Shown here: in pieces, positions 253 to 55,118 of the stretch
How positions within the stretch are numbered: position 1 is the first letter of the stretch
Layout: the number at the start of each line of letters is the position of its first letter
IMG/VR virus record: IMGVR_UViG_3300029258_002844
Strand: one strand, 5' to 3'
DNA length: 64,000 nucleotides
Source of the DNA: an uncultured virus (IMG/VR IMGVR_UViG_3300029258_002844)
Lineage: Duplodnaviria; Heunggongvirae; Uroviricota; Caudoviricetes
The notes under the pieces: generated by a model
Told to the model about the DNA's origin: nothing
Seen by the model: only the letters and a program-made list of their open reading frames with translations
The model's database searches: none
Position numbers and translations under genes: made by a program

Positions 253-780
253 ATGTATAAGATTGCCATTACTGGAGCTCCTGGTAGTGGTAAAAGTCGA
301 ACTAGAAAGTTTTTCGAAAAACTTGGTGCTTTAACAATTGATGCTGATGATATTGCCAGAGATCTTTTAAAACCAGGAACACCAGCATTTCTCCAAGTTC
401 TTAAAGAATTTGGCCGTGAAATTCTTACAACTGATAATGAAATTAACAGAAGAAAGTTAAGAAATAAAATTATTCAAAACAATGATGATAGAATAAAAAT
501 TGAAAAAATTCTACAACCAATCATTAGTTTTGAAATAAAACAAAAACTTAACGATTTTTCATGGAATTCTATTATTGCTGTTGAAATGGCAATAATGTTA
601 GATGAGTGTGTTGACTATTTTGATTCCATCATACTTGTGATTGCAGATGAGGCTACAAAGATCAGACGTGTTATGAAGAGAGATAGTTGTACTGCTGAGG
701 AAGCAGAGGCTTTAATAGCTCTACATCCTCCAGATGAAGAACGGAAAAAATTGGCTGATGTTATTATTGACAACTCGTAA
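253..780 (+). CDS. coaE: Dephospho-CoA kinase
   Basis: IAITGAPGSGKS P-loop, IDADDIAR, INRRKL, ADVIIDNS; AAGGAG upstream of ATG 253. Confidence 0.85.
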   Translation: MYKIAITGAPGSGKSRTRKFFEKLGALTIDADDIARDLLKPGTPAFLQVLKEFGREILTTDNEINRRKLRNKIIQNNDDRIKIEKILQPIISFEIKQKLNDFSWNSIIAVEMAIMLDECVDYFDSIILVIADEATKIRRVMKRDSCTAEEAEALIALHPPDEERKKLADVIIDNS

Positions 781-796
781 GAAGAAAGGAAGACTA

Positions 797-1030
797 ATGA
801 GATTGGTGAATCGGCGAAAAAGTAGTGAAAGATTGACTGTCAATGAATGTGTAGAAATGTTGGCTCGTATGACTCAAGACTTGGAGGTCTTTGATAAGGA
901 AAAAGATGGTCATCTTAAACGACTTGAGAGAGAAAAAGTTGAATTGGAAAAGCAGGCAGAAGCCGCTAAAACCGAAAAGAACAGGGGTGTAAAAATAGTT
1001 CAGAATATCAAAAATCTCCTAGCGGTGTAG
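797..1030 (+). CDS. Hypothetical coiled-coil protein
   Basis: ORF with purine-rich RBS, abuts rtcB. Confidence 0.6.
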   Translation: MRLVNRRKSSERLTVNECVEMLARMTQDLEVFDKEKDGHLKRLEREKVELEKQAEAAKTEKNRGVKIVQNIKNLLAV

Positions 1031-1033
1031 ACT

Positions 1034-2389
1034 ATGTTAGAATTTGAGGGAAAATACACATCGGCAAAAGTGATGATTGATGATATCGAGCCACAATGTG
1101 GAGAGCAAATTGCTGAATTTATTAATCATCCGGCATTTACAAAACCAGTATCTATTATGCCTGATTGTCATAAAGGTATGGGTTGTGTTATTGGTTTTAC
1201 AATGCTATTGGATTGTGATAATGTTATAAAAATCATCCCCAATACAATCGGTGTTGATATTGGTTGCGGAATGTTAAGTGTGAATGTTGGTAAAAACATT
1301 TTCTCAAAGTTGACAAAACAAGAGATAGATGATGCCATAAGAGTACAGATACCCTTTGGGTTTAACACACATAAAAAACCAGCAATCAATATGGAACGTC
1401 AGTTTCCTTGGGAAGAAACAAATTATGAAGTGAAACCATTTGCGGGTGGATTAGGTTGGCTTGATATTGAAAATCCGCCCACTTACACTTATGAGTTTTT
1501 CGAGAAAAAGTGTAAACAAATTGAAGCAGACTTTTATCGAGCACAAAAAAGTCTTGGAACTCTTGGTGGTGGGAATCATTTCATTGAAATTGGTCGTTCA
1601 GAGAACACCGGAGATTACTGGGTTACTGTACATTCTGGTTCTAGAAATTTTGGGTTGTGTGTCTGTAATTACTGGCAAAAGTTAGCAATTAAAAAACTCC
1701 ATGAAAAAAGAACAGTTAAAATACACAAAAGAATTGAAAAAATAAAAGAAAGAACGAAAGACAAAACACAACTAGATTCAAAGATTCAAAATGCTAAAAA
1801 AGAACTGGGTATAGATGAATTTATTCCAAATCATCTTGCTTACTTAGAAGGTAAGGATGCACATCTTTATCTCTATGATATGATTTTTGCTCAGAAATTT
1901 GCTGAGGAAAATCGTGCAATAATGATGACAACCATTCTTGACATTCTTGGCGCAAAACCACAAGACGTAGTGGAGTCAGTACATAATTATGTTGACCCAC
2001 AAGATTATACCATTAGAAAAGGCGCAATAAGAAGTGTAAAGGGTGAACGGATGATTATCCCATTTAACATGCGTGATGGTCTCCTTATATGTGAAGGAAA
2101 GAATAACCCAGAATGGAACAACTCAGCACCACACGGAGCTGGACGAGTAATGTCCAGATCAAAAGCAAAACAGAAAATAGATGTTGAAACATTTAAACAT
2201 CAAATGGATGGTGTATTCTCAACAAGTGTCGGAAGAGGAACATTAGACGAAGCACCAGATGCTTATAAAGACGCTTCAGTGATTGAGAATGCAATTGTTG
2301 ATACAGCCATCATTTTAGATCGAATAAAACCTGTTATGAACCTGAAAGATATAGGTAAGGAACAAAGAAGGAGAAAAGGGAACAAATAA
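1034..2389 (+). CDS. rtcB: RtcB RNA ligase
   Basis: MPDCHKG, GVDIGCG, LGTLGGGNHFIE, VHSGSR, HNY, HGAGR, DEAPDAYK motifs. Confidence 0.95.
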   Translation: MLEFEGKYTSAKVMIDDIEPQCGEQIAEFINHPAFTKPVSIMPDCHKGMGCVIGFTMLLDCDNVIKIIPNTIGVDIGCGMLSVNVGKNIFSKLTKQEIDDAIRVQIPFGFNTHKKPAINMERQFPWEETNYEVKPFAGGLGWLDIENPPTYTYEFFEKKCKQIEADFYRAQKSLGTLGGGNHFIEIGRSENTGDYWVTVHSGSRNFGLCVCNYWQKLAIKKLHEKRTVKIHKRIEKIKERTKDKTQLDSKIQNAKKELGIDEFIPNHLAYLEGKDAHLYLYDMIFAQKFAEENRAIMMTTILDILGAKPQDVVESVHNYVDPQDYTIRKGAIRSVKGERMIIPFNMRDGLLICEGKNNPEWNNSAPHGAGRVMSRSKAKQKIDVETFKHQMDGVFSTSVGRGTLDEAPDAYKDASVIENAIVDTAIILDRIKPVMNLKDIGKEQRRRKGNK

Positions 2390-24750: not shown

Positions 24751-24823
24751 AGGCTGGTAGCTTAATAGAAAGCTCGCGACGATTAATCGCGAATCGGAGG
24801 TTAGAACCCTTCCCAGCCTACCA
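24751..24823 (+). tRNA. Atypical tRNA (loop CGATTAA, nominal AUU anticodon; T loop TTAGAAC)
   Basis: AGGCTGG/CCAGCCT-ACCA, CGCGA-CGATTAA-TCGCG. Confidence 0.6.
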
Positions 24824-25582: not shown

Positions 25583-26156
25583 ATTTGGGTGTGGAAGAAA
25601 AGCTATTCACCAATATAAAGATGGTACTTGGTGTTGTAGTTCAAATGTATCAAAATGTCCAGAAATCAAAAAGAAAATGAGTAGGACTAACACCCTTATT
25701 CCACACCAAAAAACAAAATGTAGTTTTTGTAAGAGGAAAATAACACTCTCAAACTTGAATCACCATGCGGCAACATGTTATTTGAATCCTAAGAATTTGC
25801 GTTTATGTCCTGTTTGTGGAGATCCTATCAAAGACTCAAACCATACTACATGTTCTAACAAATGTAAAGGTAAGTATTTTAAAGAAGTGTACAGCGCATG
25901 TAGGACAAAACCTGATGATGAGCTAAAAGATTACAGGATAATATGTTTTAGACATCATGAAAAGAAGTGTGTTATATGTGGTGAGGAAAATGTTACAGAG
26001 GTTCACCATTTCGATGAAGAAAAATCAAACAATAACAAAGATAACTTAATTCCTCTATGTCCAACACATCACAAATATATGCATAACAGGTTTAAGTCGT
26101 TAATTGAACAAAAGGTAAATACATATATAGCAAATTTTAAAGCTGATGTCGCTTAG
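25569..26156 (+). CDS. HNH endonuclease with CxYGCG-type N-terminal zinc module
   Basis: CKFGCG...WCCS...CP; CVICG...EVHH.D...N...NLIPLCPTHH. Confidence 0.75.
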   Translation: MKTCKFGCGRKAIHQYKDGTWCCSSNVSKCPEIKKKMSRTNTLIPHQKTKCSFCKRKITLSNLNHHAATCYLNPKNLRLCPVCGDPIKDSNHTTCSNKCKGKYFKEVYSACRTKPDDELKDYRIICFRHHEKKCVICGEENVTEVHHFDEEKSNNNKDNLIPLCPTHHKYMHNRFKSLIEQKVNTYIANFKADVA

Positions 26157-26227
26157 TGGCCGATAGCGCCGGTCTTGTAAACCGGAGGAGAAATCCCACG
26201 GGTGTTCGAATCACCCCATCAGCTCCA
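26142..26227 (+). tRNA. tRNA-Thr(UGU) with long variable arm
   Basis: CCGGT-CTTGTAA-ACCGG, GGA-GAAA-TCC, TCCA. Confidence 0.85.
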
Positions 26228-26420
26228 AAAGGTAATTATGGACAAATTACGGGAATTTGGTTATTGGATTCTGTTTTGTCTAACTGTTGTAGGTGGGTTC
26301 ATGCACTGGATATTTATTCTATGTTCAGACGATGTTCTCATTGAAACAGAAGACGAAGAATGGTCCGTAACCTTCCCGAATTTGTTCGACAATGATGACC
26401 TTGAGTAGGAGGAGAACGAT

Positions 26421-26597
26421 ATGGCAATTCAATATAAAGTCGAGAGATTTGACTTTGACCCCATAGATTCAACCGCAGGTCTTGAATTTTTACTTGACTA
26501 AGAAGGTGCTGATGATTGGGATTTAATACAAATGATTCGAGCTGGTGTAGATGCTGCTACCGGCATAATGTCAGGACTGTTTATCTTTAAGAAATAA
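26421..26597 (+). pseudogene. DUF4177-like small gene with in-frame TAA at 26499-26501
   Basis: AGGAGG RBS; MAIQYKV...LEFLLD*EGADDWDLIQ...FIFKK. Confidence 0.5.
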
Positions 26598-26603
26598 CTA
26601 AAA

Positions 26604-26679
26604 CTCCGCGTAGCTGAATAGGATCAGCAAGACCCTTCTAAGGTCTAGTATGGGCGTTCGAGTCGCCTCGCGGAGTCCA
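26604..26679 (+). tRNA. tRNA-Arg(UCU)
   Basis: AGACC-CTTCTAA-GGTCT, TCCA. Confidence 0.9.
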
Positions 26680-26704
26680 TTACAAAAAAGAAAGGAGACG
26701 ACAA

Positions 26705-26764
26705 ATGACGTAGATTACTTTTGGCGTACCACCCTAGGTAGTTGCTAGAGGTCCGCCTTATTAA
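26705..26764 (+). promoter_or_regulatory. Putative leader ORF with two in-frame amber codons and an RGPP motif
   Basis: AGGAG + 7 nt + ATG ACG TAG ATT ACT TTT GGC GTA CCA CCC TAG GTA GTT GCT AGA GGT CCG CCT TAT TAA. Confidence 0.55.
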
Positions 26765-26810
26765 ATTATAATTTGGAAACTTAAATTATAATTTATAAGG
26801 AGATAAGACA

Positions 26811-27125
26811 ATGACTAGGAAGCAACTACTACAAAAGATCAAGCAAGAACAAAAGGCAAGGGCAAAAGAGATTCGTGAACTCAAATCTACCAGGAAACAA
26901 GATAAGCGTAATGGTAGACAGCTGTATGCAATTGAAAGTGATATTGTTTGGGAAAAATATGAGTTTAGACATCACCACATTGCATACTGTGAAATGAGGG
27001 GACGCACTAGAGATCAAATTGAATGTCCCCGAGAAGATAATCTCCCGGTCCAGCGAGAGATTGATCGTATTAAAGAAGAGTGGATGGAGCAGCTCGATGA
27101 AGATGTACATACTGACGCGGCTTGA
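26811..27125 (+). CDS. Hypothetical basic protein
   Basis: AAGGAG RBS; RHHHIAYCEMRGR...IE motif. Confidence 0.7.
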   Translation: MTRKQLLQKIKQEQKARAKEIRELKSTRKQDKRNGRQLYAIESDIVWEKYEFRHHHIAYCEMRGRTRDQIECPREDNLPVQREIDRIKEEWMEQLDEDVHTDAA

Positions 27126-27384
27126 TCTGTCTACATCTCAACAGGCTGTTCAGGGGGGTCACGCGCTTGCAGGATTCCTCCTGAGCATCCCTCAAGATTG
27201 GAATAACAGTACTCTCGTTTATCTTGGAGTCAAAGATGAAACCCATTTACATAGATGGGCACACAAACTGGACATTCATGATATTGACTTTAAAGAATGG
27301 CGAGAACCGGATATGGGTAACGAGTTAACTGCTCTTGCAGCATACTCAGACGGACGCATTTTTAAGAATTTGAATTTGTTATAA
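27097..27384 (+). CDS. Peptidyl-tRNA hydrolase Pth2-like protein
   Basis: YILTR.DL...QQAVQGGHA...LVYL.V..E...EPD...ELTALA. Confidence 0.7.
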   Translation: MKMYILTRLDLSTSQQAVQGGHALAGFLLSIPQDWNNSTLVYLGVKDETHLHRWAHKLDIHDIDFKEWREPDMGNELTALAAYSDGRIFKNLNLL

Positions 27385-27391
27385 AGTGTGA

Positions 27392-27465
27392 AGGCGTGTA
27401 GTTGAGTGGCTCAACAGGAAACTCTAAATTTCCGTAGGCGGGTTCGATTCCCGTCACGCCTTCCA
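27392..27465 (+). tRNA. Amber suppressor tRNA (CUA)
   Basis: GGAAA-CTCTAAA-TTTCC, AGGCGTG/CACGCCT, U73-CCA. Confidence 0.85.
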
Positions 27466-27496
27466 TTTATTTTTTTGTAAAGAAAGGTACTGAATA

Positions 27497-28159
27497 ATGA
27501 ATAGTCGAATTATACTACCGTTGGACAATATGGAATGGGAGAAAGCTGAAGTTATAATGCAGATGACCCAAGGAATGGTATGGGGTTATAAGGTCAGACG
27601 AACCGTTCTTGATAAAGGTCTTTGTATCATTCAAAAGATTAAAGAGTATGGAAATGTCATGGTTGACTTTAAACTTTATGACATTCCAAGTGCTATTGAT
27701 GAATCTGTTCATGCTCATCTTGAAAGTGGTGCAGATATCACAACAGTCCATTGTACAGCAGGTTATATTCCTGTTCCAGTGCAAGCTCCAAAAATTGCTG
27801 GAGTTACCATTCTAACTTCAATGGCTGGATATCAGTTTGAAAAATATTACAGAGGTGATGTTCAAGGTGCTGTCAGGTCAATGGCTATGGATGCTGAGAA
27901 ACTAAAATATGGATATGTTGTTTGCTCCGCTGCTGATCTAAAAGAAGGACTGCCTATTTATCATACAAAAAAGATATGTCCTGGAATTAGACCACAATGG
28001 TATCAGGAAAATGATGATCAAAAAAGAACGATGACTCCAAAAGACTCAATTGAAGCTGGAGCTGATTTGCTTGTTATTGGTCGTCCTATTCTCAATTCAT
28101 CTGACCCAATAAGAGCTGTTGATTGGACAAATGAGGAAATAGAATCTGCAGAAAAATAA
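27497..28159 (+). CDS. pyrF: Orotidine-5'-phosphate decarboxylase
   Basis: DFKLYDIP, GVTILTS, CPGIR, DDQKR, LVIGRPI. Confidence 0.9.
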   Translation: MNSRIILPLDNMEWEKAEVIMQMTQGMVWGYKVRRTVLDKGLCIIQKIKEYGNVMVDFKLYDIPSAIDESVHAHLESGADITTVHCTAGYIPVPVQAPKIAGVTILTSMAGYQFEKYYRGDVQGAVRSMAMDAEKLKYGYVVCSAADLKEGLPIYHTKKICPGIRPQWYQENDDQKRTMTPKDSIEAGADLLVIGRPILNSSDPIRAVDWTNEEIESAEK

Positions 28160-28190: not shown

Positions 28191-29141
28191 TTAGTCTTCT
28201 TTTTCTGGGTTAAGATGTTTCACATATTCTTTAAACAAGTTTAAATCATATTTACCTGTATTTACTTCGTCCACAAGGTATTCACAGGCGTCGTAACATG
28301 ACATCGGGTCTCGATAAGTCCGAGTATCAGAGGTGAGAGCCTCGTGGCAGTCGATAATAGCCACGATTCTACAGAACTTACTAATCTGGTTACCTTTCTT
28401 ACCATGGTATCCAGAACCATCGAGTTTTTCATGATGGTACATTGCCACGTCCCTAACTGCGTCGTTGATTTTGTCATTACCAAAGTCAACTCGTTCAAGG
28501 AGTACTGCGCCAATTACAGTATGGGCACGCATTGCAGTATATTCCTCATCTGTAAGTTGTTTATCAGATTTGAGGATCTCATCGGGTATTTGAGTCTTGC
28601 CGATATCATGAGTCAAGCAAGCTAATGCAAATATCCTGGTCTTTCTTTTCGACCATTTTAAATACATGGCGAAACTAATTCCAAGACTCATTACCCTAAC
28701 ACTATGTACCAGGGTCGAGTAGTCCTTATCACTGATAGCAAGGACCGACTTCAGCATTTCAATATTGCTACCATCAATCAGCTCGTCAACTAAAGCTTTG
28801 ACAGCCTCTACTTTCGAACTGATGATGTCATTGGGATCGCTGAAGATTGTGTCTTCAGCGATGTCCTTAATAAGTTCCTTGGTCTTCTTGATGTTACCAG
28901 AAGTCAAGTTCTCTCGAAGAGCAGTAGTCCAACTTTCTTTCAGCTCCTCGAACATTACGTTTTCGTCAGTCTTACGAATATACAACTTCGCAGGAAGCAA
29001 CTCAGACTTAATTCTATTGTGCAGTGGCCGATCGCCATTAGAATACAATTTATAATCACCGTCGTAAAGTCTATACAGTGGTGTATTATTCAGGTATTCC
29101 AACCTGCGGGGCGGCACTACACAGAAGATTGCTGTGGTCAT
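28191..29141 (-). CDS. HD-GYP domain protein (putative cyclic dinucleotide phosphodiesterase)
   Basis: HSVRV, HDIGK, HHEKLDGSGY, IVAIIDC.EALTSDTR.YR. Confidence 0.85.
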   Translation of the reverse strand: MTTAIFCVVPPRRLEYLNNTPLYRLYDGDYKLYSNGDRPLHNRIKSELLPAKLYIRKTDENVMFEELKESWTTALRENLTSGNIKKTKELIKDIAEDTIFSDPNDIISSKVEAVKALVDELIDGSNIEMLKSVLAISDKDYSTLVHSVRVMSLGISFAMYLKWSKRKTRIFALACLTHDIGKTQIPDEILKSDKQLTDEEYTAMRAHTVIGAVLLERVDFGNDKINDAVRDVAMYHHEKLDGSGYHGKKGNQISKFCRIVAIIDCHEALTSDTRTYRDPMSCYDACEYLVDEVNTGKYDLNLFKEYVKHLNPEKED

Positions 29142-47015: not shown

Positions 47016-47435
47016 ATGGATATAGCAATATTAGTTGCATCATTCGCTGTAGCCATAGTGTTGTTTCTCTTATTACGCAATGAGATTCGACTTGTTCGAA
47101 ATAATAAACGTGTAAAAGATTTCCAAAGTTATGCTGCAGTGTTGATGTTTCATATGGAAAAAGCATATGATATAATTTATAAAGATCGAATTTTAATATG
47201 GTCAATTGAAGCAACAAAGTTTGATGATGAAGAATATAAGAATACAGCTAAAGATTTTGCCAAATTAGTTTTACAACTGCTCGGTCCTACTCTTATAGAA
47301 GAACTAACCCTTCTCTACGGTAATGAGGAAACTCTTCTACTAAATATTACTGAGTATTTCAATACTCGTTTTGACGATGACGAGATACGTGAAACTGCTC
47401 AAAACAACTTAATGGAACATGGGATTGAGTCATGA
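47016..47435 (+). CDS. Membrane-anchored hypothetical protein
   Basis: N-terminal TM helix. Confidence 0.55.
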   Translation: MDIAILVASFAVAIVLFLLLRNEIRLVRNNKRVKDFQSYAAVLMFHMEKAYDIIYKDRILIWSIEATKFDDEEYKNTAKDFAKLVLQLLGPTLIEELTLLYGNEETLLLNITEYFNTRFDDDEIRETAQNNLMEHGIES

Positions 47436-47671
47436 AACTCTATGAAGAATATATTCAATATTTGAAAGAAGGCAAGCGGACCTCTCGCACAACAGTAACA
47501 AGAAATACAAAAATCAAACGAGCAACTGGACAGTTATCTAGTGTCGCTGCGAGAAAGAAAAATGATCCGCTTTATCAAAAAATGGTCAAATATCGAACAT
47601 TATATTTTAAGTATCGAGATATGATTCATAGAAAATACTCACCACGTGTAAGAACCAAGGCAAGGAGATAA
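47432..47671 (+). CDS. Small basic protein
   Basis: Overlapping start/stop with neighbours. Confidence 0.55.
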   Translation: MKLYEEYIQYLKEGKRTSRTTVTRNTKIKRATGQLSSVAARKKNDPLYQKMVKYRTLYFKYRDMIHRKYSPRVRTKARR

Positions 47672-47672
47672 T

Positions 47673-49574
47673 ATGCCGACTCTTAAAGATACATTTCATA
47701 AACTGAAAACTAGTATCGTTGGTACAAAAACTGTTGACATCGATACAAAACTAAACAATGCAGTAAACGACATTTCTGCATTTAAAGCAAACTCAGGAAG
47801 AAATGGTTACGTGGAGTTGGTCCGTTCTCTTATTACAAAAACAGCTGGTGGTGATATTCGACTTGACAATACTGGTGGATTATTTGGACAGGGGGCAACT
47901 TCCCCAGCAACATTTGGTCAAGGTAGTAGAATGATGAGATATAAGACTTATCAATCTATTATCTCAAATATTAATTACTGTTATCGCGCTCTTAATGTTC
48001 TTACTGATAATATACTATCACCGGATGATATCACAAAAGTTTCTCTTGAGATCAAACCAAAATCTTATCTAGGAGATGAAATTCCTACGGAATCAAAAAT
48101 TCTATCAATCAGAGAAGCAATTAAGAAATTGAAATTAGAAGACAATCTTGATAAAGTGATAAAATTTACTTTGTTATATGGCGACTTCTTTTGTGAGATT
48201 GCTGACGCTAAAACAGCTCTAACTAGTAAAGCATATTTAGCGGAGCAACTTGAAGAAGCAGTACAGATTGGTTCAAAAGAAGTTATATCATATAACCAAG
48301 ATAAATATAACATGACAATCACTATGGATTATACTGCTTCTTTTGAATCTAAAAATACAGTAGTCTCAACACCTAAAGATAAGAAAGACAAATCTGGAAA
48401 AATCCCAGTAGAGAATCTTAACTTAGTATTTCATGATCCTAATAGAGTAGTAAAGTTACAGAGTGATTTATTTCCCCTTTGTTTTGGATATTTAATTTTT
48501 CCAAAATCAGTCACTCACCCACAACAAATGATGCAGGATCAGGTTGTTGATACTCTTTGCACGCAGATTCTCAAGAGTCTTGAAAAAAGAATTCCTCAAA
48601 TTAAAGAGGTTGCTGATGATGATGAGTTAAAGAACATTGTCAACGCCATGATCAAAGAAACTGATCAATCAAGATCTATGAACATTCGTTATATTCCACC
48701 AGATCGAATTCAACACTTTTTGATTCCATCTATGAAATATGCTCCATACGGTGAATCTATTTTTGATAGTACTCAATATTCAGCTAAAGTTTTGGTTGCT
48801 TTAGAAACAGCTCTTGCTATTCAACGTATCTCAAGATCTACTGAGAAAAGAAAAATAGCTATTGAACTTGGTCTTCCTCGTGATGCTCGTAAAATGATTG
48901 AGAGGATGAAAGAGGAATTCAGAAAAAGAAAGGTTAGTTTAGACTCTTTCGGAACCATTGACACCATTCCTAGTTTAATAACAACATTTGAAGATATTTA
49001 TATTCCTCAAAAGGATGGTAAAGCGTTTGTGGATGTAGATACTTTTACTGGTGGAAATGTTGACGTAAGAAGTAAAGTTGATGAATTGAAATATCTGCGA
49101 GATTCAACAGTCGCATCCCTTGGTGTTCCACCAAGCTTTTTAAACATAGAAGAAAACCTATCCAACAAAGCAGCACTTGGTGAAGAGAACATTCTTTTTG
49201 CAAGAACTATTATTGCACATCAAAAAGACATAACTCATGGACTAAATGAATTAATACAAAAAGTGTTTGATATTATAGATCCTGAGGGTGCTCTTGTTAT
49301 TTTAGATCAGGTTATTATTACTCTTCCGCCACCAAAATCATTACAGTTTGAACGAGAGGCAAAATACATTGGGGATTTAACTAACCTCATTGAATCTCTT
49401 GAAAGAATTGGTGTTCCAAAAGAATATTCAAAGAAGAAGTATCTCACCAATATCGATTGGGATGAAGTAGAGAACTACGGAATTGATGAAGTAATTGATA
49501 AGAAACTTGGAACAGACAAGAAAGATGATGATGGTGGTCTAGGCGGTATGGGTGGCGGTATGGGAGGATTTTAA
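47673..49574 (+). CDS. Portal protein (T4 gp20-like)
   Basis: YGDFF, PYGESI, E.A..I.RI.R, ED.YIP, L.Y......LGVP.S, I.F.R pattern; head-module position. Confidence 0.8.
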   Translation: MPTLKDTFHKLKTSIVGTKTVDIDTKLNNAVNDISAFKANSGRNGYVELVRSLITKTAGGDIRLDNTGGLFGQGATSPATFGQGSRMMRYKTYQSIISNINYCYRALNVLTDNILSPDDITKVSLEIKPKSYLGDEIPTESKILSIREAIKKLKLEDNLDKVIKFTLLYGDFFCEIADAKTALTSKAYLAEQLEEAVQIGSKEVISYNQDKYNMTITMDYTASFESKNTVVSTPKDKKDKSGKIPVENLNLVFHDPNRVVKLQSDLFPLCFGYLIFPKSVTHPQQMMQDQVVDTLCTQILKSLEKRIPQIKEVADDDELKNIVNAMIKETDQSRSMNIRYIPPDRIQHFLIPSMKYAPYGESIFDSTQYSAKVLVALETALAIQRISRSTEKRKIAIELGLPRDARKMIERMKEEFRKRKVSLDSFGTIDTIPSLITTFEDIYIPQKDGKAFVDVDTFTGGNVDVRSKVDELKYLRDSTVASLGVPPSFLNIEENLSNKAALGEENILFARTIIAHQKDITHGLNELIQKVFDIIDPEGALVILDQVIITLPPPKSLQFEREAKYIGDLTNLIESLERIGVPKEYSKKKYLTNIDWDEVENYGIDEVIDKKLGTDKKDDDGGLGGMGGGMGGF

Positions 49575-49595
49575 CATGACCATAGGAGTTAAGAT

Positions 49596-50234
49596 ATGAA
49601 TCTTGATGCTCAACATATAATACGACAAATGAAAGATGTGTTAGAAAAATCATTTGCCTCAAATACACAGTTTGACAGCTATACCGATAAGCATCCAGAT
49701 GCACGCCAAGATTTTGCTGATGTGCCAACTGCAGATGATGACGATGAATATAAGACTAATGTAGACTTCCCAATGGAACAAGTCAAAGAAGCTGAGGAAG
49801 AAGAAGCTCCACCAGAAGAAGAAATGCCAGCTGAGGAAGCACCTGAAGAAGGTGGTGAGATGCCTCCTGATGCAGAGATGGGTGGTATGGAAGGAATGCC
49901 TGGCGAAGAAGGTATGGGTGACATGGGTGGTATGGGTGAAGAGGATGAAGGTCCACAAGATCTCACAGAAGTCGGTCGTAGATTTGAGTTAAAGAAAATA
50001 TATACAAGATTAGTTGCTATTCAAGCTCACTTAAATACAGCAACAGATGAAGAGTTGATTGATATAAGAAACTTTGTATCACAAGCTTTAAATTTGTTTA
50101 AAGTGTTAATAAATAACATCGATTTGTACAAAGAAAAAATTGATGAAGTTCTTATAGTATTTTATAAGTTTGTCGTGCATGTTTATGATATGCTAAGTAA
50201 GTATTATAAGACCAAGGCAAACAAGGAGAAATAA
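49596..50234 (+). CDS. Hypothetical head-module protein with acidic Gly/Met linker
   Basis: ORF after portal. Confidence 0.6.
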   Translation: MNLDAQHIIRQMKDVLEKSFASNTQFDSYTDKHPDARQDFADVPTADDDDEYKTNVDFPMEQVKEAEEEEAPPEEEMPAEEAPEEGGEMPPDAEMGGMEGMPGEEGMGDMGGMGEEDEGPQDLTEVGRRFELKKIYTRLVAIQAHLNTATDEELIDIRNFVSQALNLFKVLINNIDLYKEKIDEVLIVFYKFVVHVYDMLSKYYKTKANKEK

Positions 50235-51127
50235 TGTTATGTAAATACGGCTGCGGGCAAGAAGCAAAACATCAATTTAAAAATGGTAATTGGTGTTGCA
50301 GTCAACATGCAAGTTCATGCCCAAATGTCAAAAACAAAATAAAGTGTTCACACAATACAGAAGAATTCATAAAAAAACAGAGTAGAGCTTTACAAAAATA
50401 CTACAAAAACACACCAGATGCTATAGAACAAAACAGAAAACGTGTTCGTAAATTCTACAAAAATGAATCACCAGAACAAAAGCTAAAAAGAATTGAGAAA
50501 CATAAAAAATCTCACAGTGGTGAACAATTTATTAAAAACCAAAGTATTAAATCAAAAAGAACAATTTCTCAAATTAAAAAACGATATCCAATTTTTGCAA
50601 TTGAAGAAGAGATGAGATATGATCCAGATAAACCAGGTGAAAGAGAAATACAAACAAGATGTAAAAATCATAACTGTATAAATTCAAAAGAGAAAGATGG
50701 TTGGTTTACTCCAACTAGTTCACAAATTGACAATAGAATGGCATCACTTGATCGATATGGAGAAGGTGGTAGTTATCTTTATTGTTCAGACCAATGTAAA
50801 AATAGTTGTAGTTTATTTAATAAAAGAGTATCCCAACTTATAGAAGATGATAAAATCACAGGCGGGCGTGTTCAAGAAATACAATATACAGATAGTGAGT
50901 ATCATGTTTTTCGCAAAGAAGTTCTAAAACGAGCAGATTATAAATGTGAATACTGTGGTAGTAAAGCAACAATTGTTCATCATTCAAGACCGCAAAAATT
51001 AGAACCATTTTTTGCTCTTGATCCAGATTATGGAATTGCATGCTGCCAAGATTGTCATCATCAATATGGACACACACCAAGAACAGAATGTTCTACAGGT
51101 TCACTAGCAAATATACTTTGCATATAA
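50234..51127 (+). CDS. HNH endonuclease (CxYGCG family)
   Basis: CKYGCG...WCCS...CP; CEYCG...HH...CC..CH. Confidence 0.8.
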   Translation: MLCKYGCGQEAKHQFKNGNWCCSQHASSCPNVKNKIKCSHNTEEFIKKQSRALQKYYKNTPDAIEQNRKRVRKFYKNESPEQKLKRIEKHKKSHSGEQFIKNQSIKSKRTISQIKKRYPIFAIEEEMRYDPDKPGEREIQTRCKNHNCINSKEKDGWFTPTSSQIDNRMASLDRYGEGGSYLYCSDQCKNSCSLFNKRVSQLIEDDKITGGRVQEIQYTDSEYHVFRKEVLKRADYKCEYCGSKATIVHHSRPQKLEPFFALDPDYGIACCQDCHHQYGHTPRTECSTGSLANILCI

Positions 51128-51138
51128 GGAGAATAATA

Positions 51139-51798
51139 ATGTCTTTTTTCATCCAAGAGGGTGCAATCTATCAAGAAGCTAAGATTGTGCATCAAACCCC
51201 AGGCAAAGCAAGATTTAGAATGACTCTACAAGGTATGAACGAGATTAACCAAAATCATAGATTATATCCCGATACCGTATTAATGAAAGGGATGGAAAAT
51301 TGTAGAGAACGATGTAGTCGAGGTGCCTTCTTTGGTGAACTTGATCATCCATTTCCTAGTGGCAACGAGCAATTTGATGCAGTTAGACAAACCACTGTAT
51401 CTCTAAAAGAAGTATCCCATATTATTAGAGATTTTGAACAACGTGGCAATTTGCTTATTGGTGAAATTGAAACTGCATCAACACCAAATGGATCTATCCT
51501 ACATGGTTTATTGAAAGATAAATCTGGTATTGGTATGAGCATGCGGGGACTTGCTGAGTTAGAACGACTCCAAGATCATAACGTTGTAAAAGACCCGCTC
51601 ATGATTGTTTCCTATGATTCTGTATCACTACCTAGTCATAAAGGAGCAGTTGTTGATTTTAATGAAATGAAATTTGAATCTAATATGTTAGTAGAGAATC
51701 AACAAATGATTTGTTTTAATGGCAGATGTTTTCTACCGAACTATTTTGATAAACTCATTGAAACAAAGATGATCAACTTTTTTACGAGGTGGGTATAA
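51139..51798 (+). CDS. Prohead protease (T4 gp21-like)
   Basis: N.N.R.Y, GELDHP, VSH, TPNG, GMSMRG, YD.V..PS. Confidence 0.9.
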   Translation: MSFFIQEGAIYQEAKIVHQTPGKARFRMTLQGMNEINQNHRLYPDTVLMKGMENCRERCSRGAFFGELDHPFPSGNEQFDAVRQTTVSLKEVSHIIRDFEQRGNLLIGEIETASTPNGSILHGLLKDKSGIGMSMRGLAELERLQDHNVVKDPLMIVSYDSVSLPSHKGAVVDFNEMKFESNMLVENQQMICFNGRCFLPNYFDKLIETKMINFFTRWV

Positions 51799-51917
51799 TG
51801 GTTCCGACACTAAAAGAAAAAGATTATTTAGATCTTCTCAAGTCAAGCTCTTCTAATCATGAGATATTCAATATCAGAAAAGAGGTTGAGGAAGAAACTC
51901 CATGTGAATCTCAATGA
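51798..51917 (+). CDS. Small ORF ending CESQ-TGA (possible readthrough to 51953)
   Basis: TAATG coupling to the protease gene. Confidence 0.35.
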   Translation: MVPTLKEKDYLDLLKSSSSNHEIFNIRKEVEEETPCESQ

Positions 51918-51994
51918 GGTAAAGACAAAAATAAATCCCAGGTAGGGGTTTAGAAACAAACTATTTGTTTAAGAAACAATCTAGGAGAAAAACT

Positions 51995-52306
51995 ATGAGA
52001 ATAGTGAAAACCGATTCCGACTTAAAGATAGAACAAATACAAAATAACAGAGATTTTATCTCATCTGTTCTTGATGAAATTTTTTTAATTTGTAGAAATG
52101 ATGGAGTCTTTAAAAGCGTCAAAAATAAAATTGGAGATGTTGATACACAAGTAGAAACATTCAATAAAAAACTTCAAAAACAAACTTCGTTGGTATCACA
52201 TGCCAAGGAGATTGAAAAAGACGTTAGACAAAAGATAGCAATCATTGATGAACAGAATGAAAAAATGAAAGATGAATTGCTTGAACAGTTAGGAAGTTCA
52301 TTATGA
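51995..52306 (+). CDS. Coiled-coil protein (possible scaffold)
   Basis: AGGAG RBS; between protease and capsid genes. Confidence 0.55.
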   Translation: MRIVKTDSDLKIEQIQNNRDFISSVLDEIFLICRNDGVFKSVKNKIGDVDTQVETFNKKLQKQTSLVSHAKEIEKDVRQKIAIIDEQNEKMKDELLEQLGSSL

Positions 52307-52719
52307 ATATTATTGAAACGAATATTCCGGACGTTGATATCAGTAACGTCAGTAAAGCAAAAGTCATGTTAGCAAATAAGATTATCAGAAATGTATATCC
52401 GTTATTTGATGAAATACATTCTGATAAGATTACTAAAATAAAGTCAATTAAACGAAACTTACAGGAAACAAGACAACAAGTGGTTTCACAAAAGAATCTG
52501 CTGGAACAGTTAATTAGTGCCTACTCCAGAAAAAAGAAAATTAAGAAATTACTTGATCGAGTTTCAAAATTAGTTTCATCAGGTTTAGTATATGATGGAT
52601 CTCTGCGGACAGAGACTATTGTATTGTTAAAGGTAATTGATAAATTACCAGAAGATAAGTTAGATCATCATCTTCGTGATTCGATGACAAATATTACAAA
52701 AAGGTTTGGTAAACCGTAA
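52303..52719 (+). CDS. Hypothetical coiled-coil protein
   Basis: Coupled ORF upstream of capsid gene. Confidence 0.55.
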   Translation: MNIIETNIPDVDISNVSKAKVMLANKIIRNVYPLFDEIHSDKITKIKSIKRNLQETRQQVVSQKNLLEQLISAYSRKKKIKKLLDRVSKLVSSGLVYDGSLRTETIVLLKVIDKLPEDKLDHHLRDSMTNITKRFGKP

Positions 52720-52741
52720 GTATAATTAAGGAGGAAACCCA

Positions 52742-54196
52742 ATGAAAGAAATTTTAACTGAAGTTTACAGAACTACTAAAAAGATGTCTGGTATCGATCC
52801 TTCGAAACCGGGCAACATGAAGCAGATTCTAGTAGACGACAGCGCATTTAACATTTATGTTACTGGTCTTGCTGAGTCCATTGAGAATCAAAAAGATCGT
52901 AAGGCTTTTGTTCAACTGGCTGAGAATACACGTGTTAACCTTTTGGAAAATTCAATGTTCCAGATCAATCCATATGAAACATTGACGCTCCCAATCCTTC
53001 GCGTGTTTTATCCTAAACTCGTTGCTAAAGAACTTATTACCGTCAGTCCAATGGATAAGCCTGAAGTAATCAAGGCTTTCATCACTGCCGAATTTACTCC
53101 CAACCCAAAAACTCCGAACACCACATACGCAGCACCAGTTACCTCTAAGGACGTCTCTGGCGGACCTGCAGTTGGTACACCTGTAGCAGCATCTGTGGCC
53201 GTTCCTCAAGACTCTTTCGACGTCTTGAATGTTATTGGTCTTACATCAACCGAAGCTCACCTTGAAAGAGATTTTGAAATCACAGCAGTAACTGATGGTA
53301 CTACAGAAGTTGCAGTATCTATCGTTCCAGCTGTTGAAGGTCATTTCTCCTCAAGCGTAACCACACCAGCCGGAACAGATGTTATTTCTGGTATGGTCGA
53401 CTATCTCAATGGAACTCTTGCTATTTCAAGTGCTACAGGCGTTGTACAGACAGTTAAATACAGCGTGACATGTTCCTTGGAAGAAAACAGAGTAAACCCA
53501 TACGTAAAACTCAACGTGGACAAGGTTCGTCTCTATGCCAGAGACCGTCAGATCTCCGCGAACTGGACAATCAATATGGAGCAAGATATGCGAGCTCTAT
53601 TTGATCTCTCCATGCAAGCTGAAATCGTCAACATCCTTGGCCAACAAATCGCGCTTGATATTGACCGTGAAATCATCGATGCTTTGATCGCTGCTAACGC
53701 ACGACTCAACTCCGGCGTACATACCAAGACCTTCAACAGGACTCCTCCTGGTGGATATGCTTGGGGAACGAAATACTGGCATGAGAACATCATCCCAACG
53801 ATGAATGAACTCTCTGCTCAAATCTACACCGACACAAACATGGAAGCTGGTAATACTATCGCTTGTAATCCACTTGACGCTGCTATCCTCGAAGATCTCC
53901 AAACGTTTAATTACACTGGAACATCTTCAACAGACGGTGATGTTGGTTACAGAAGCGCTACAGTAGCTGGCGGAAAATGGAGAGTGCTGACATCAGCAGT
54001 CGTACCACAAGGCACAATGGTTATGGTTTACAAACCAGCCGAAGAGCTCAAGTGTGTATATCTCTATTGTCCCTATGTGCCTGCAGTATTACACCCTTAT
54101 CCGTTGGGCGCAACTCCATCTCTAACAATTCTAAGTCGTTATGCGACTAGCCTTGTTAGAAGCAATGGAATTTGTGCTCTCAATATTGGTGCATAA
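52742..54196 (+). CDS. Major capsid protein (T4 gp23-like)
   Basis: V.PM..P, R.I.A.WT...EQD, I.L.IDREII, YCPYVP, SRY; strong codon bias; terminator downstream. Confidence 0.9.
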   Translation: MKEILTEVYRTTKKMSGIDPSKPGNMKQILVDDSAFNIYVTGLAESIENQKDRKAFVQLAENTRVNLLENSMFQINPYETLTLPILRVFYPKLVAKELITVSPMDKPEVIKAFITAEFTPNPKTPNTTYAAPVTSKDVSGGPAVGTPVAASVAVPQDSFDVLNVIGLTSTEAHLERDFEITAVTDGTTEVAVSIVPAVEGHFSSSVTTPAGTDVISGMVDYLNGTLAISSATGVVQTVKYSVTCSLEENRVNPYVKLNVDKVRLYARDRQISANWTINMEQDMRALFDLSMQAEIVNILGQQIALDIDREIIDALIAANARLNSGVHTKTFNRTPPGGYAWGTKYWHENIIPTMNELSAQIYTDTNMEAGNTIACNPLDAAILEDLQTFNYTGTSSTDGDVGYRSATVAGGKWRVLTSAVVPQGTMVMVYKPAEELKCVYLYCPYVPAVLHPYPLGATPSLTILSRYATSLVRSNGICALNIGA

Positions 54197-54219
54197 GAAA
54201 CGGGTTAATTAACAAATAT

Positions 54220-54253
54220 AATGTCCAAGGAGTTTCGACTCCTTGGACATTTT
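54220..54253 (+). terminator. Intrinsic terminator after capsid gene
   Basis: ATGTCCAAGGAGT-TTCG-ACTCCTTGGACAT-TTT. Confidence 0.85.
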
Positions 54254-54299
54254 CCGTCGAAAAATTCTACTATAAGAACAAAAACAAAAGGCGGAGAAT

Positions 54300-55118
54300 A
54301 TGTTGAATAAAGTAACAAATAGAAGACAAGCAATTCATAATATACAAGACGTATCTTTTGTTAGTTGCCCATATTGTGAACACTCTAAAGAATATCAGAT
54401 GTTGCATTGGAAACATTTAAAAGATAGTCATAATAAGACAATTTATGATGTTAGGAACGAGTTTCCAGATATTCCAACAATGACATTACAAGAATCAAGA
54501 AGAAGAAGCAAAGCAAGAATTAAATGTGATAATAAAATTACAAGAACATGTGAAAAGAAATATGGTGGTATTGGATATGCCAGTAAAGTATTAGAAAAGA
54601 AAGTAAGAAAGTCAATGACGAAAATATATGGTGTAGGAAATCCCATGCAAAATAAGAAAGTATCAAGTAAATTTAACGGTGATGGGAATCCTATGAGAAA
54701 TCCTGAAACAGCAAAAAAAGTCTCGAATACTTTAACGGGTCGTCCATCTCCTCTAAAAGGCAAAACTTACGAAGAAATTCTTGGACCAGAACGAGCCACA
54801 GAACGACTAGAAGAACTCCGCATCTCTGGAGCTCTTGGTCAATCCCTCACACCATTCATTTCGGAACCTCAAAAACAACTTTTTGAAATGGTAAAAGAAG
54901 TTTACCCAACAGCCGTGATGGAGTATCCTATTTTTGGTTATTGTATTGATATAGCAGTTCCAGAGCTAAAATTAGCTTTTGAATATGATGGTTCATATTG
55001 GCATGATGCAGAAAAAGACAAAATGAGAGATGAAATTTTAGAACAATTAGGTTGGAAGACAGTCCGTTTTGTGGACCATCTTCCAACCAAGTTATTAACG
55101 ACGATTCAAAATGATTAA
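54300..55118 (+). CDS. DUF559/Vsr-like homing-endonuclease-type protein
   Basis: SEPQ, IDIA, FEYDGSYWH...D..RD..L...GW. Confidence 0.75.
   Translation: MLNKVTNRRQAIHNIQDVSFVSCPYCEHSKEYQMLHWKHLKDSHNKTIYDVRNEFPDIPTMTLQESRRRSKARIKCDNKITRTCEKKYGGIGYASKVLEKKVRKSMTKIYGVGNPMQNKKVSSKFNGDGNPMRNPETAKKVSNTLTGRPSPLKGKTYEEILGPERATERLEELRISGALGQSLTPFISEPQKQLFEMVKEVYPTAVMEYPIFGYCIDIAVPELKLAFEYDGSYWHDAEKDKMRDEILEQLGWKTVRFVDHLPTKLLTTIQND

Follow-up and report, generated by a model that had tools for sequence, protein, structure and literature searches.

A predicted stop-codon gate, read by a co-encoded suppressor tRNA, upstream of Pth2-fold genes in large phages

Organization of the locus

The DNA analysed here (the window; 64,000 nt) is part of a 76.8-kb record of an uncultured virus (IMG/VR IMGVR_UViG_3300029258_002844), in which 21 tRNA genes were called. 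One of them, with the anticodon CUA, lies behind two small overlapping genes, ORF-A and ORF-B (A and B below), which are themselves preceded by a short leader frame interrupted by two TAG codons. The entire module occupies less than 800 bases and consists of the following features (all on the + strand of the window).

26692..26698, +, Shine-Dalgarno (SD) sequence of the leader, AAGGAGA (AGGAGA at 26693-26698); from the sequence
26705..26764, +, leader ORF MT*ITFGVPP*VVARGPPY*, ATG at 26705, 20 codons including the stop; from the sequence, design conserved in relatives
26711..26713, +, first amber gate, TAG, leader codon 3; from the sequence
26735..26737, +, second amber gate, TAG, directly after Pro-Pro; from the sequence
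26747..26758, +, RGPP, predicted ribosome-arrest motif whose Pro codons start the anti-SD arm; motif class of PMC12992588 and PMC10951233
26762, +, final stop of the leader, TAA; from the sequence
26756..26800, +, core of a predicted hairpin (extending over 26751-26804) in which Pro and Tyr codons pair with the SD of ORF-A; from folding, shuffles and relatives
26796..26802, +, SD of ORF-A, TAAGGAG, predicted to be sequestered (pairing probability 0.82)
26811..27125, +, ORF-A, a 104-aa basic, all-helical protein; from sequence, homologues and predicted structure
27097..27384, +, ORF-B, a 95-aa Pth2-fold protein, whose ATG at 27097 overlaps the end of ORF-A; from profile and fold comparison
27392..27465, +, tRNA with anticodon CUA (27424-27426); from the tRNA call

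This arrangement agrees with the initial annotation of the DNA, in which a leader with a strong ribosome-binding site, two in-frame TAGs and RGPP was described ahead of a basic gene, a Pth2-like gene and a CUA tRNA. A 121-aa version of ORF-B starting with TTG at 27019 was rejected because this is not the conserved start. An Rfam scan of positions 26000-28000 returned no family besides tRNA.

Conservation of the leader peptide

Scans seeded with single ORF proteins gave almost nothing, and homologues had to be collected by alignment-based searches. An alignment of 49 out of 54 ORF-A homologues was used to retrieve 133 loci, the metagenomic part of which represents the best 80 of 462 matches. 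Together with the window, ORF-A was present in 134 loci; the upstream DNA was long enough in 129 of these, and removal of near-copies left 94. A leader was defined as an ATG followed by an in-frame TAG and a Pro-Pro ending 25-120 nt before the gene. Such a leader was present upstream of ORF-A in 75 of the 94 non-redundant loci and is not a product of chance: none of 215 other genes from these loci had one, and shuffling the bases of the upstream regions produced one in 29 of 9400 sequences. The initial annotation had proposed to look for conservation of the leader frame upstream of homologues; the frame is indeed kept in these 75 loci, at the peptide level and with a UAG gate. TAG and Pro-Pro share one frame in 81 of the 94 loci, and among all stop triplets considered, 119 of 171 TAGs were in frame with the nearest Pro-Pro, compared to 13 of 117 TAAs and 4 of 63 TGAs. 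Inspection by eye of 13 misses revealed six TAG leaders ending in X-Pro-stop and one M-K-TAG leader lacking Pro; five loci had no leader and one was cut off.

Of the 75 leaders, 46 have their first TAG at codon 3 and 27 at codons 4-20; 33 contain two TAGs. The base directly following TAG is a purine in 120 of 123 cases, and the frame past the gate is purged of TAA and TGA. At their ends, 53 of 81 leaders display R-x-P-P (most commonly RGPP), which is continued by a sense codon in 39 and by a stop in 14, whereas all 28 non-RxPP leaders terminate in P-P-stop (Fisher p 1e-11). A Pro residue before a stop codon slows termination. The leader Arg is encoded by five different codons, and both Pro positions use all four Pro codons. 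The residue x is mostly G, S, D or A, the set called arrest-permissive in PMC12992588, so that the arrest-type end claimed in the initial annotation holds as a conserved motif. Mapped onto a tree of B, which is based on few columns and has rough supports, the two types of ending require at least 3 and 5 label changes on the starred branches; the RxPP/PP-stop rule is thus not a single inherited state. The leaders are 5-20 codons long and possess no hydrophobic, signal or membrane segment, that is, no sensor domain of the Sec/YidC-monitor type. Sigma-70-like promoters were not enriched upstream of the leaders (8/80 versus 5% in shuffles).

Predicted hairpin over the ribosome-binding site of ORF-A

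Region 26685-26820 of the window is predicted to form a long stem that begins at the second Pro codon and reaches the ORF-A SD (z -3.3, 0/200 shuffles). The stem is kept in relatives that differ in sequence: the mean pairing of the SD was 0.88 in 84 loci, whereas 232 other genes averaged 0.50 (p 6e-28). In RxPP leaders the partner of the SD lies 3 nt ahead of the end of Pro-Pro, in PP-stop leaders 7 nt beyond it (p 1.5e-4), which is the direction expected if the latter class stalls later. When the footprint of a ribosome was masked, SD pairing fell from 0.91 to 0.43, a drop that partly follows from the removal of sequence. As the window has no U-tract behind the stem, the control is read as translational. 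According to these models, a ribosome terminating at either TAG would miss the core of the stem, whereas a stall at RGPP would place the ribosome over the base of the stem; the stall site is thereby predicted to be placed so as to open the structure over the SD of ORF-A.

Proteins encoded by the module

ORF-B resembles Pth2 and PTH2-like proteins (PF01981) in its fold and in the Q-x-x-H motif; however, it is shorter and matches the family below the Pfam cut-off (E 0.002). Its profile retrieved solved Pth2 chains with E-values of 2e-5 and 4e-5, and its predicted model matched 1wn2 (PH1539), which we take to be a Pth2, with a Z of 13.7 and an rmsd of 1.7 over 94 aligned residues. Gln, His, Glu, Asp and Thr residues are invariant. 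The lysine that precedes Q-x-x-H in the solved Pth2 chains, and which has a catalytic role in Pth2, is missing from ORF-B, where this position is variable, and E-P-D replaces D-A-G; hydrolase activity is consequently not assured. Thus, on the basis of the models, ORF-B has the Pth2 fold, while peptidyl-tRNA hydrolysis is a putative activity. The accessible part of PMC13023423 contained nothing informative on the activity of PTRHD1.

Among the 79 ORF-A loci with 700 nt of downstream sequence, 69 have B next to ORF-A, 67 contain tRNA-CUA and 66 have both, which upholds the linkage of the leader with a Pth2-like gene and a suppressor tRNA suggested initially. A and B are fused into one gene in L047 and L070. 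Genes of the module seldom end in TAG (6/94 for A and 5/80 for B, versus 49/269 for other ORFs).

ORF-A carries the motif R-H-x-H-I-A-Y-C-x-x-R-G-R..Q-I-E and is predicted, with a pLDDT of 92, to adopt a basic helical hairpin with additional short helices. It could not be assigned to any Pfam or PHROG family, with weak and scattered PHROG matches only, and had no match in the Atlas; structure comparison retrieved generic helical hairpins (best Z 7.3), none of them informative. No longer, fused form of ORF-A was present among 8000 scored candidates, which is weak evidence. Three further loci (L300, L307 and L358) contain, ~100-240 nt after tRNA-CUA, a leader ending in KPP-stop or RPP-stop that gates an A-like gene with no B nearby, indicating that A can be the only gated gene. 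No B was found in genome G015, which is 62% complete.

Bacterial and archaeal genomes yielded four ORF-A loci, of which only L052 has the full module. This locus, in a 427-kb contig of a Thermoplasmatota metagenome-assembled genome (JAOZSQ010000001.1), comprises a leader with RGPP, A, B and tRNA-CUA; the contig is probably a mis-binned huge phage. In L067, a 383-aa ORF is inserted after ORF-A, pushing B and the tRNA ~1.2 kb away; we presume that it encodes an RNA-guided transposon nuclease, which it resembles.

Suppressor tRNA

The tRNA-CUA of the window folds into an ordinary cloverleaf with A1-U72, U73, an encoded CCA and a short variable loop, and matches RF00005 only. Its identification as tRNA-Pyl was rejected in view of the ordinary cloverleaf and U73, the label given by ARAGORN following the anticodon; tRNAs of the Pyl type have G73, a six-pair anticodon stem and a three-base variable loop, and are expected close to pylS. 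Across 101 CUA tRNAs the discriminator base is A in 46, U in 35, G in 16 and C in 4, and the acceptor pairs vary, while the loop is nearly fixed. By contrast, the discriminator is invariant within each of the Cys, Asp, Lys, Trp and Asn tRNAs found at these loci. Judged from this pattern, selection on tRNA-CUA seems to act on the reading of the stop rather than on the amino acid delivered. Charging by LysRS or GlnRS via U35 is plausible from work on E. coli suppressors.

The tRNA gene is located upstream of the module in L026, L028, L034, the Lak phages and ME3, and in XacN1 it is separated from the module by some 111 kb or more. It is therefore an input rather than an output of the leader, and the idea, put forward in the initial annotation, that the leader controls the suppressor tRNA is not supported.

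A tRNA-anchored scan considered the 80 of 121 loci that had flanks, of which 52 were non-redundant and had a called tRNA-CUA. Within 1.5 kb of the tRNA, B is found in 12 of these loci, a leader with an A-like gene alone in 3 and a third gated family (family C) in 8, while 29 of the 52 showed neither B nor a gated partner in this interval. Family C proteins (L289, L308 (1691-2254, +), L311, L328, L335, L343, L350 and L363) are ~190 aa long, start with M-x(-x)-TAG, contain F-H-F-N-K-K-H-L-E-D and have no sequence match in Pfam, PHROG or PDB. B is absent from the one family C genome that was checked, G014 (30% complete).

Direct gates within B

Homologues of B occur in 24 GenBank phage records, nine of which were opened. 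In seven of them (XacN1, Xoo-sp13, RAS14, ME3 and three uncultured huge phages), the gene starts with M-x(-x)-TAG and continues in frame into B or a B fusion. A B-anchored scan of the best 80 of 435 matches, combined with the GenBank records, provided 49 new non-redundant loci. The automatic classes of gates were corrected by eye: the 'direct' gate of L180 and the 'leader' of L154 look spurious and L202 is ambiguous. After correction, about 33 loci have leaders and 11 have clear direct gates, in which the TAG occupies one of codons 3-5 of B itself or of a longer gene fused to B. Of the 10 loci in the 'none' class, seven (L146, L152, L155, L161, L164, L182 and L190) show TAG leaders, L176 has a TGA gate and L181 is truncated; only L214, from a 104-kb genome that is 65% complete, has neither gate nor suppressor. 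Where B is placed before the leader, it carries its own TAG (L028 and L034).

In the XacN1-type loci (L136, L137 and L138; ORF364 of XacN1, 243756-244595), B follows a 180-aa domain with an HDIGK motif, and the annotated start of ORF364 likely lies downstream of the true one, M-K-TAG. The N-terminal domain had no sequence match in Pfam or PDB and matched only PHROG 14850 (function unassigned); its HDIGK motif recalls, in our view, the HD domain of CCA-adding enzymes. A CUA-type tRNA match is present elsewhere in the genomes of RAS14 and two uncultured phages. No such match was found in three of five incomplete records, and Xoo-sp13 has a gated gene and no CUA tRNA (by pattern search of the whole record, and by ARAGORN in 60 of its 309 kb), which counts against a strict pairing of gate and tRNA.

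Gate codon, anticodon and genetic code

Not all carriers use TAG as the gate. Lak-A1 and Lak-B1 have a UUA tRNA and a leader that is TAA-gated at codon 7 and ends in RGP-stop or RGSP. Both phages read TAG as Gln, and a TAA suppressor tRNA (UUA) is found in 51/51 Lak genomes without sign of TAA recoding (PMC8346664). In L176, a UCA tRNA directly follows B and the leader is TGA-gated at codon 5; the genome is TAG-recoded (coding density rises from 0.34 to 0.68) and has two other CUA tRNAs. The TAA and TGA switches have each been seen in one lineage only, and a starred clade (97/82) of the B tree joins Lak and L176 with the TAG/CUA users L184, L185 and L205, of which the L205 genome uses the standard code. 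The joint changes to TAA/UUA and TGA/UCA imply that the gate shifts to whichever codon still functions as a stop, and that the tRNA follows.

The standard code is also used by the window genome, XacN1, ME3, G003, G011, G014 and G015. Recoding of TAG (code 15) in the window genome was rejected, as its coding density increases only from 0.67 to 0.72 with TAG as a sense codon, compared to an increase from 0.34 to 0.68 in G001. TAG ends 10 of the 52 ORFs of 150 codons or more in this genome, mostly without a back-up stop, which argues against strong constant suppression. None of the 14 + strand ORFs in the structural-looking blocks (47016-55118 in the window and 66911-75381 in the genome) ends in TAG, and many genes outside these blocks do.

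Genomes were further scanned for a start followed by a stop within five codons and then by a long frame or the leader motif. A strict version of the scan missed two known gates and a relaxed one was used. In the window genome it produced a single TAG match, the leader itself; in G003, ME3 and XacN1 it produced the module and 1, 1 and 6 other matches, respectively, similar to the TAA/TGA background. The module thus appears to be the only convincing gated start in these four genomes. According to the accessible part of PMC5852040, the authors describing XacN1 found no target gene for its CUA tRNAs; ORF364, whose annotation begins at a later ATG, past the predicted gate, would be one.

Proposed mechanism and purpose

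We propose that only ribosomes that read both UAGs by means of tRNA-CUA would reach RGPP, that stalling there would open the hairpin hiding the ribosome-binding site of ORF-A, and that ORF-A and the overlapping Pth2-fold ORF-B would then be translated. The comparison of relatives shows the gate, the stall motif, the hairpin, the tRNA linkage and the way in which gate codon and anticodon change in step; read-through, stalling and hairpin opening are very probably how the gate works. More generally, in many large phages a stop-gated gene is likely to be translated only when the matching tRNA outcompetes termination.

The weaker step concerns the purpose. In the reading that we prefer, the module would serve as a sentinel of, and back-up for, failing termination. 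The tRNA would be a weak, generic competitor of release factors that wins when release-factor activity falls during infection; read-through would then switch on B, a protein with a tRNA-ester hydrolase fold, with A as its helper, and B would clear stuck peptidyl-tRNA or blocked aminoacyl-tRNA. Such a role would fit the choice of a live stop as the gate, the single client, the loose identity of the tRNA, the TAG stops lacking back-up and the rarity of TAG as the final stop of A and B. We give the gate and this purpose, taken together, an even chance. A broader form, in which generic suppressor tRNAs are stop-codon sentinels across large phages of many hosts, hinting at a hypothetical anti-termination host defence and a bypass of release factors, is put forward tentatively and is rather less probable than not.

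The suppressor might instead be the working part, causing, for example, read-through of host or rival-phage stops, with A and B, induced by it, deacylating or binding it as a brake. The partner genes, which have folds of the type acting on tRNA 3' ends and are the only convincing client of the tRNA, would be well suited to this, as would the occurrence of three unrelated proteins (A, B and family C) behind the same gate beside the tRNA; two TAGs would give a steep response. However, the scans of the window genome, G003, ME3 and XacN1 did not reveal a phage gene that gains from suppression, an ochre suppressor used as a weapon in Lak would strike the phage's own main stop, and the unconstrained acceptor identity leaves B little to recognise besides the anticodon. 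We regard such a brake as possible but unlikely.

It is a good deal less probable that A and B mature or charge the suppressor in a positive feedback, producing a one-way read-through switch during infection. The tRNA has no shared synthetase identity and the XacN1-type fusion adds the HDIGK domain, both of which could be accommodated by such a switch, and so could the lack of TAG ends in the structural blocks (0/14 ORFs at 47-55 kb and 67-75 kb), although highly expressed genes favour TAA anyway. Against it, TAG ends many other genes without back-up stops, and a UAA latch in Lak would be self-destructive.

That the TAGs are sense codons of recoded phages or remnants of recoding, with CCN-CCN kept only as an anti-SD sequence, is very improbable. 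Of the Pro codons, CCT, which pairs with the SD, is used most often (54 and 44 of 81 at the two positions), and some carriers are recoded; yet seven carriers, including the window genome, use the standard code, in recoded carriers a codon other than TAG is the gate, Arg is conserved across five codons, Pro-Pro stays in frame, and the SD of PP-stop leaders pairs downstream of Pro-Pro.

Finally, the initial annotation had invoked lambda bar, a two-codon minigene that would drain tRNA by peptidyl-tRNA drop-off, with B as an offsetting Pth, and although M-X-UAG in 46/75 leaders and the Pth2 fold of B recall it, this reading is largely refuted and barely credible, because the gate lies at codons 4-20 in 27/75 leaders and at codon 7 in Lak, TAA and TGA are cleared from the frame past the stop while RxPP is retained there, a change of gate codon is accompanied by a change of anticodon, and production of B is expected when ribosomes read through the gate, not when they terminate at it.

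Relation to known systems

Elements of the module are familiar from several regulatory systems. Leaders of the ApdA, ApdP, CruR and SecM (RAGP) kind similarly have RGPP, RAPP, RSPP or RDPP at the C-terminus of an upstream ORF, where a stall is predicted to expose the next ribosome-binding site (PMC12992588, PMC10951233). Unlike these, the leaders described here are 5-20 codons long and phage-borne, and their input would be access to the motif through a stop codon rather than a pulling force. Known RAPP/RGPP arrest peptides are much longer (PMC12992588), and arrest by a chain of 7-20 residues is a prediction here; the main text of PMC12992588 uses none of the words phage, stop codon and suppressor. 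As in prfB, which encodes RF2 and whose logic the sentinel reading shares, an early in-frame stop gates a protein of the peptide-release type through competition with a release factor (accessible part of bioRxiv 10.1101/2024.09.24.614795), but the bypass would be in-frame, by a suppressor tRNA, with no +1 frameshift, all three stops are used, and the product has a Pth2 fold instead of being a class I release factor. In PepNL and TnaC the leaders are also short, arrest occurs at or near a stop and read-through is part of the logic; in PepNL, however, read-through cancels the arrest, whereas the phage leaders are predicted to arrest as a result of read-through, with a co-encoded suppressor doing the reading (both as described in the accessible part of PMC11890864).

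For code-change modules of recoded phages (crAss-like, Lak and Jade), the suppressor tRNA has been proposed to control phage genes, and the accessible part of this survey does not contain the word 'hydrolase' (bioRxiv 10.1101/2021.08.26.457843). Those modules consist of suppressor tRNA, synthetase and release factor; most carriers of the present module, in contrast, use the standard code and show one evident client of the tRNA, and the recoded ones keep a separate suppressor for a stop that is still active.

The tRNA encoded by bldA of Streptomyces gates genes containing UUA, a rare sense codon found in many genes. It shares with tRNA-CUA the principle that one tRNA regulates the genes holding its codon; unlike it, the phage tRNA would read a stop in its own partner. 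Lambda bar-type minigenes are fixed two-codon ORFs with no selected frame after the stop and differ from the phage leaders, in which the position of the gate varies and the post-stop frame is conserved. The parts are thus known. No description of a suppressor tRNA that unlocks its own partner genes, with the codon and the anticodon adjusted in parallel, was found in the open literature covered.

A gate of this kind would explain orphan suppressors such as the CUA tRNAs of XacN1 (accessible part of PMC5852040) and the UUA tRNA of 51/51 Lak genomes (PMC8346664). It would also offer phages with the standard code a reason to keep a suppressor, and is a plausible starting point for stop-codon recoding. 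All three stop codons appear to serve as a regulatory gate with a matched tRNA. Over a hundred natural RxPP and PP-stop leaders of 5-20 codons are now available for the study of minimal ribosome arrest, and the true start of several phage genes is likely missed by current annotation.

Other features of the window

Outside the conserved module, tRNA-CUA is followed by a gene for OMP decarboxylase (27497-28159), which is faced by an HD-GYP-type (HD_5) gene on the opposite strand (28191-29141). Upstream of the leader, a short ORF (26421-26601, +; MAIQYKVERF...) has a good SD and a single in-frame TAA near 26499, past which the same frame stays open for ~33 codons; this may be a broken gene or a sequencing error. 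ARAGORN assigned a tRNA-Asn with the unusual anticodon ATT to positions 24751-24823. At 734-2389 (+), an ORF that terminates with TAG at 1030 shares its frame with the gene after it, which starts at 1034 and encodes 451 aa, so that read-through would fuse the two; the 451-aa product is presumably an RtcB-type RNA ligase.
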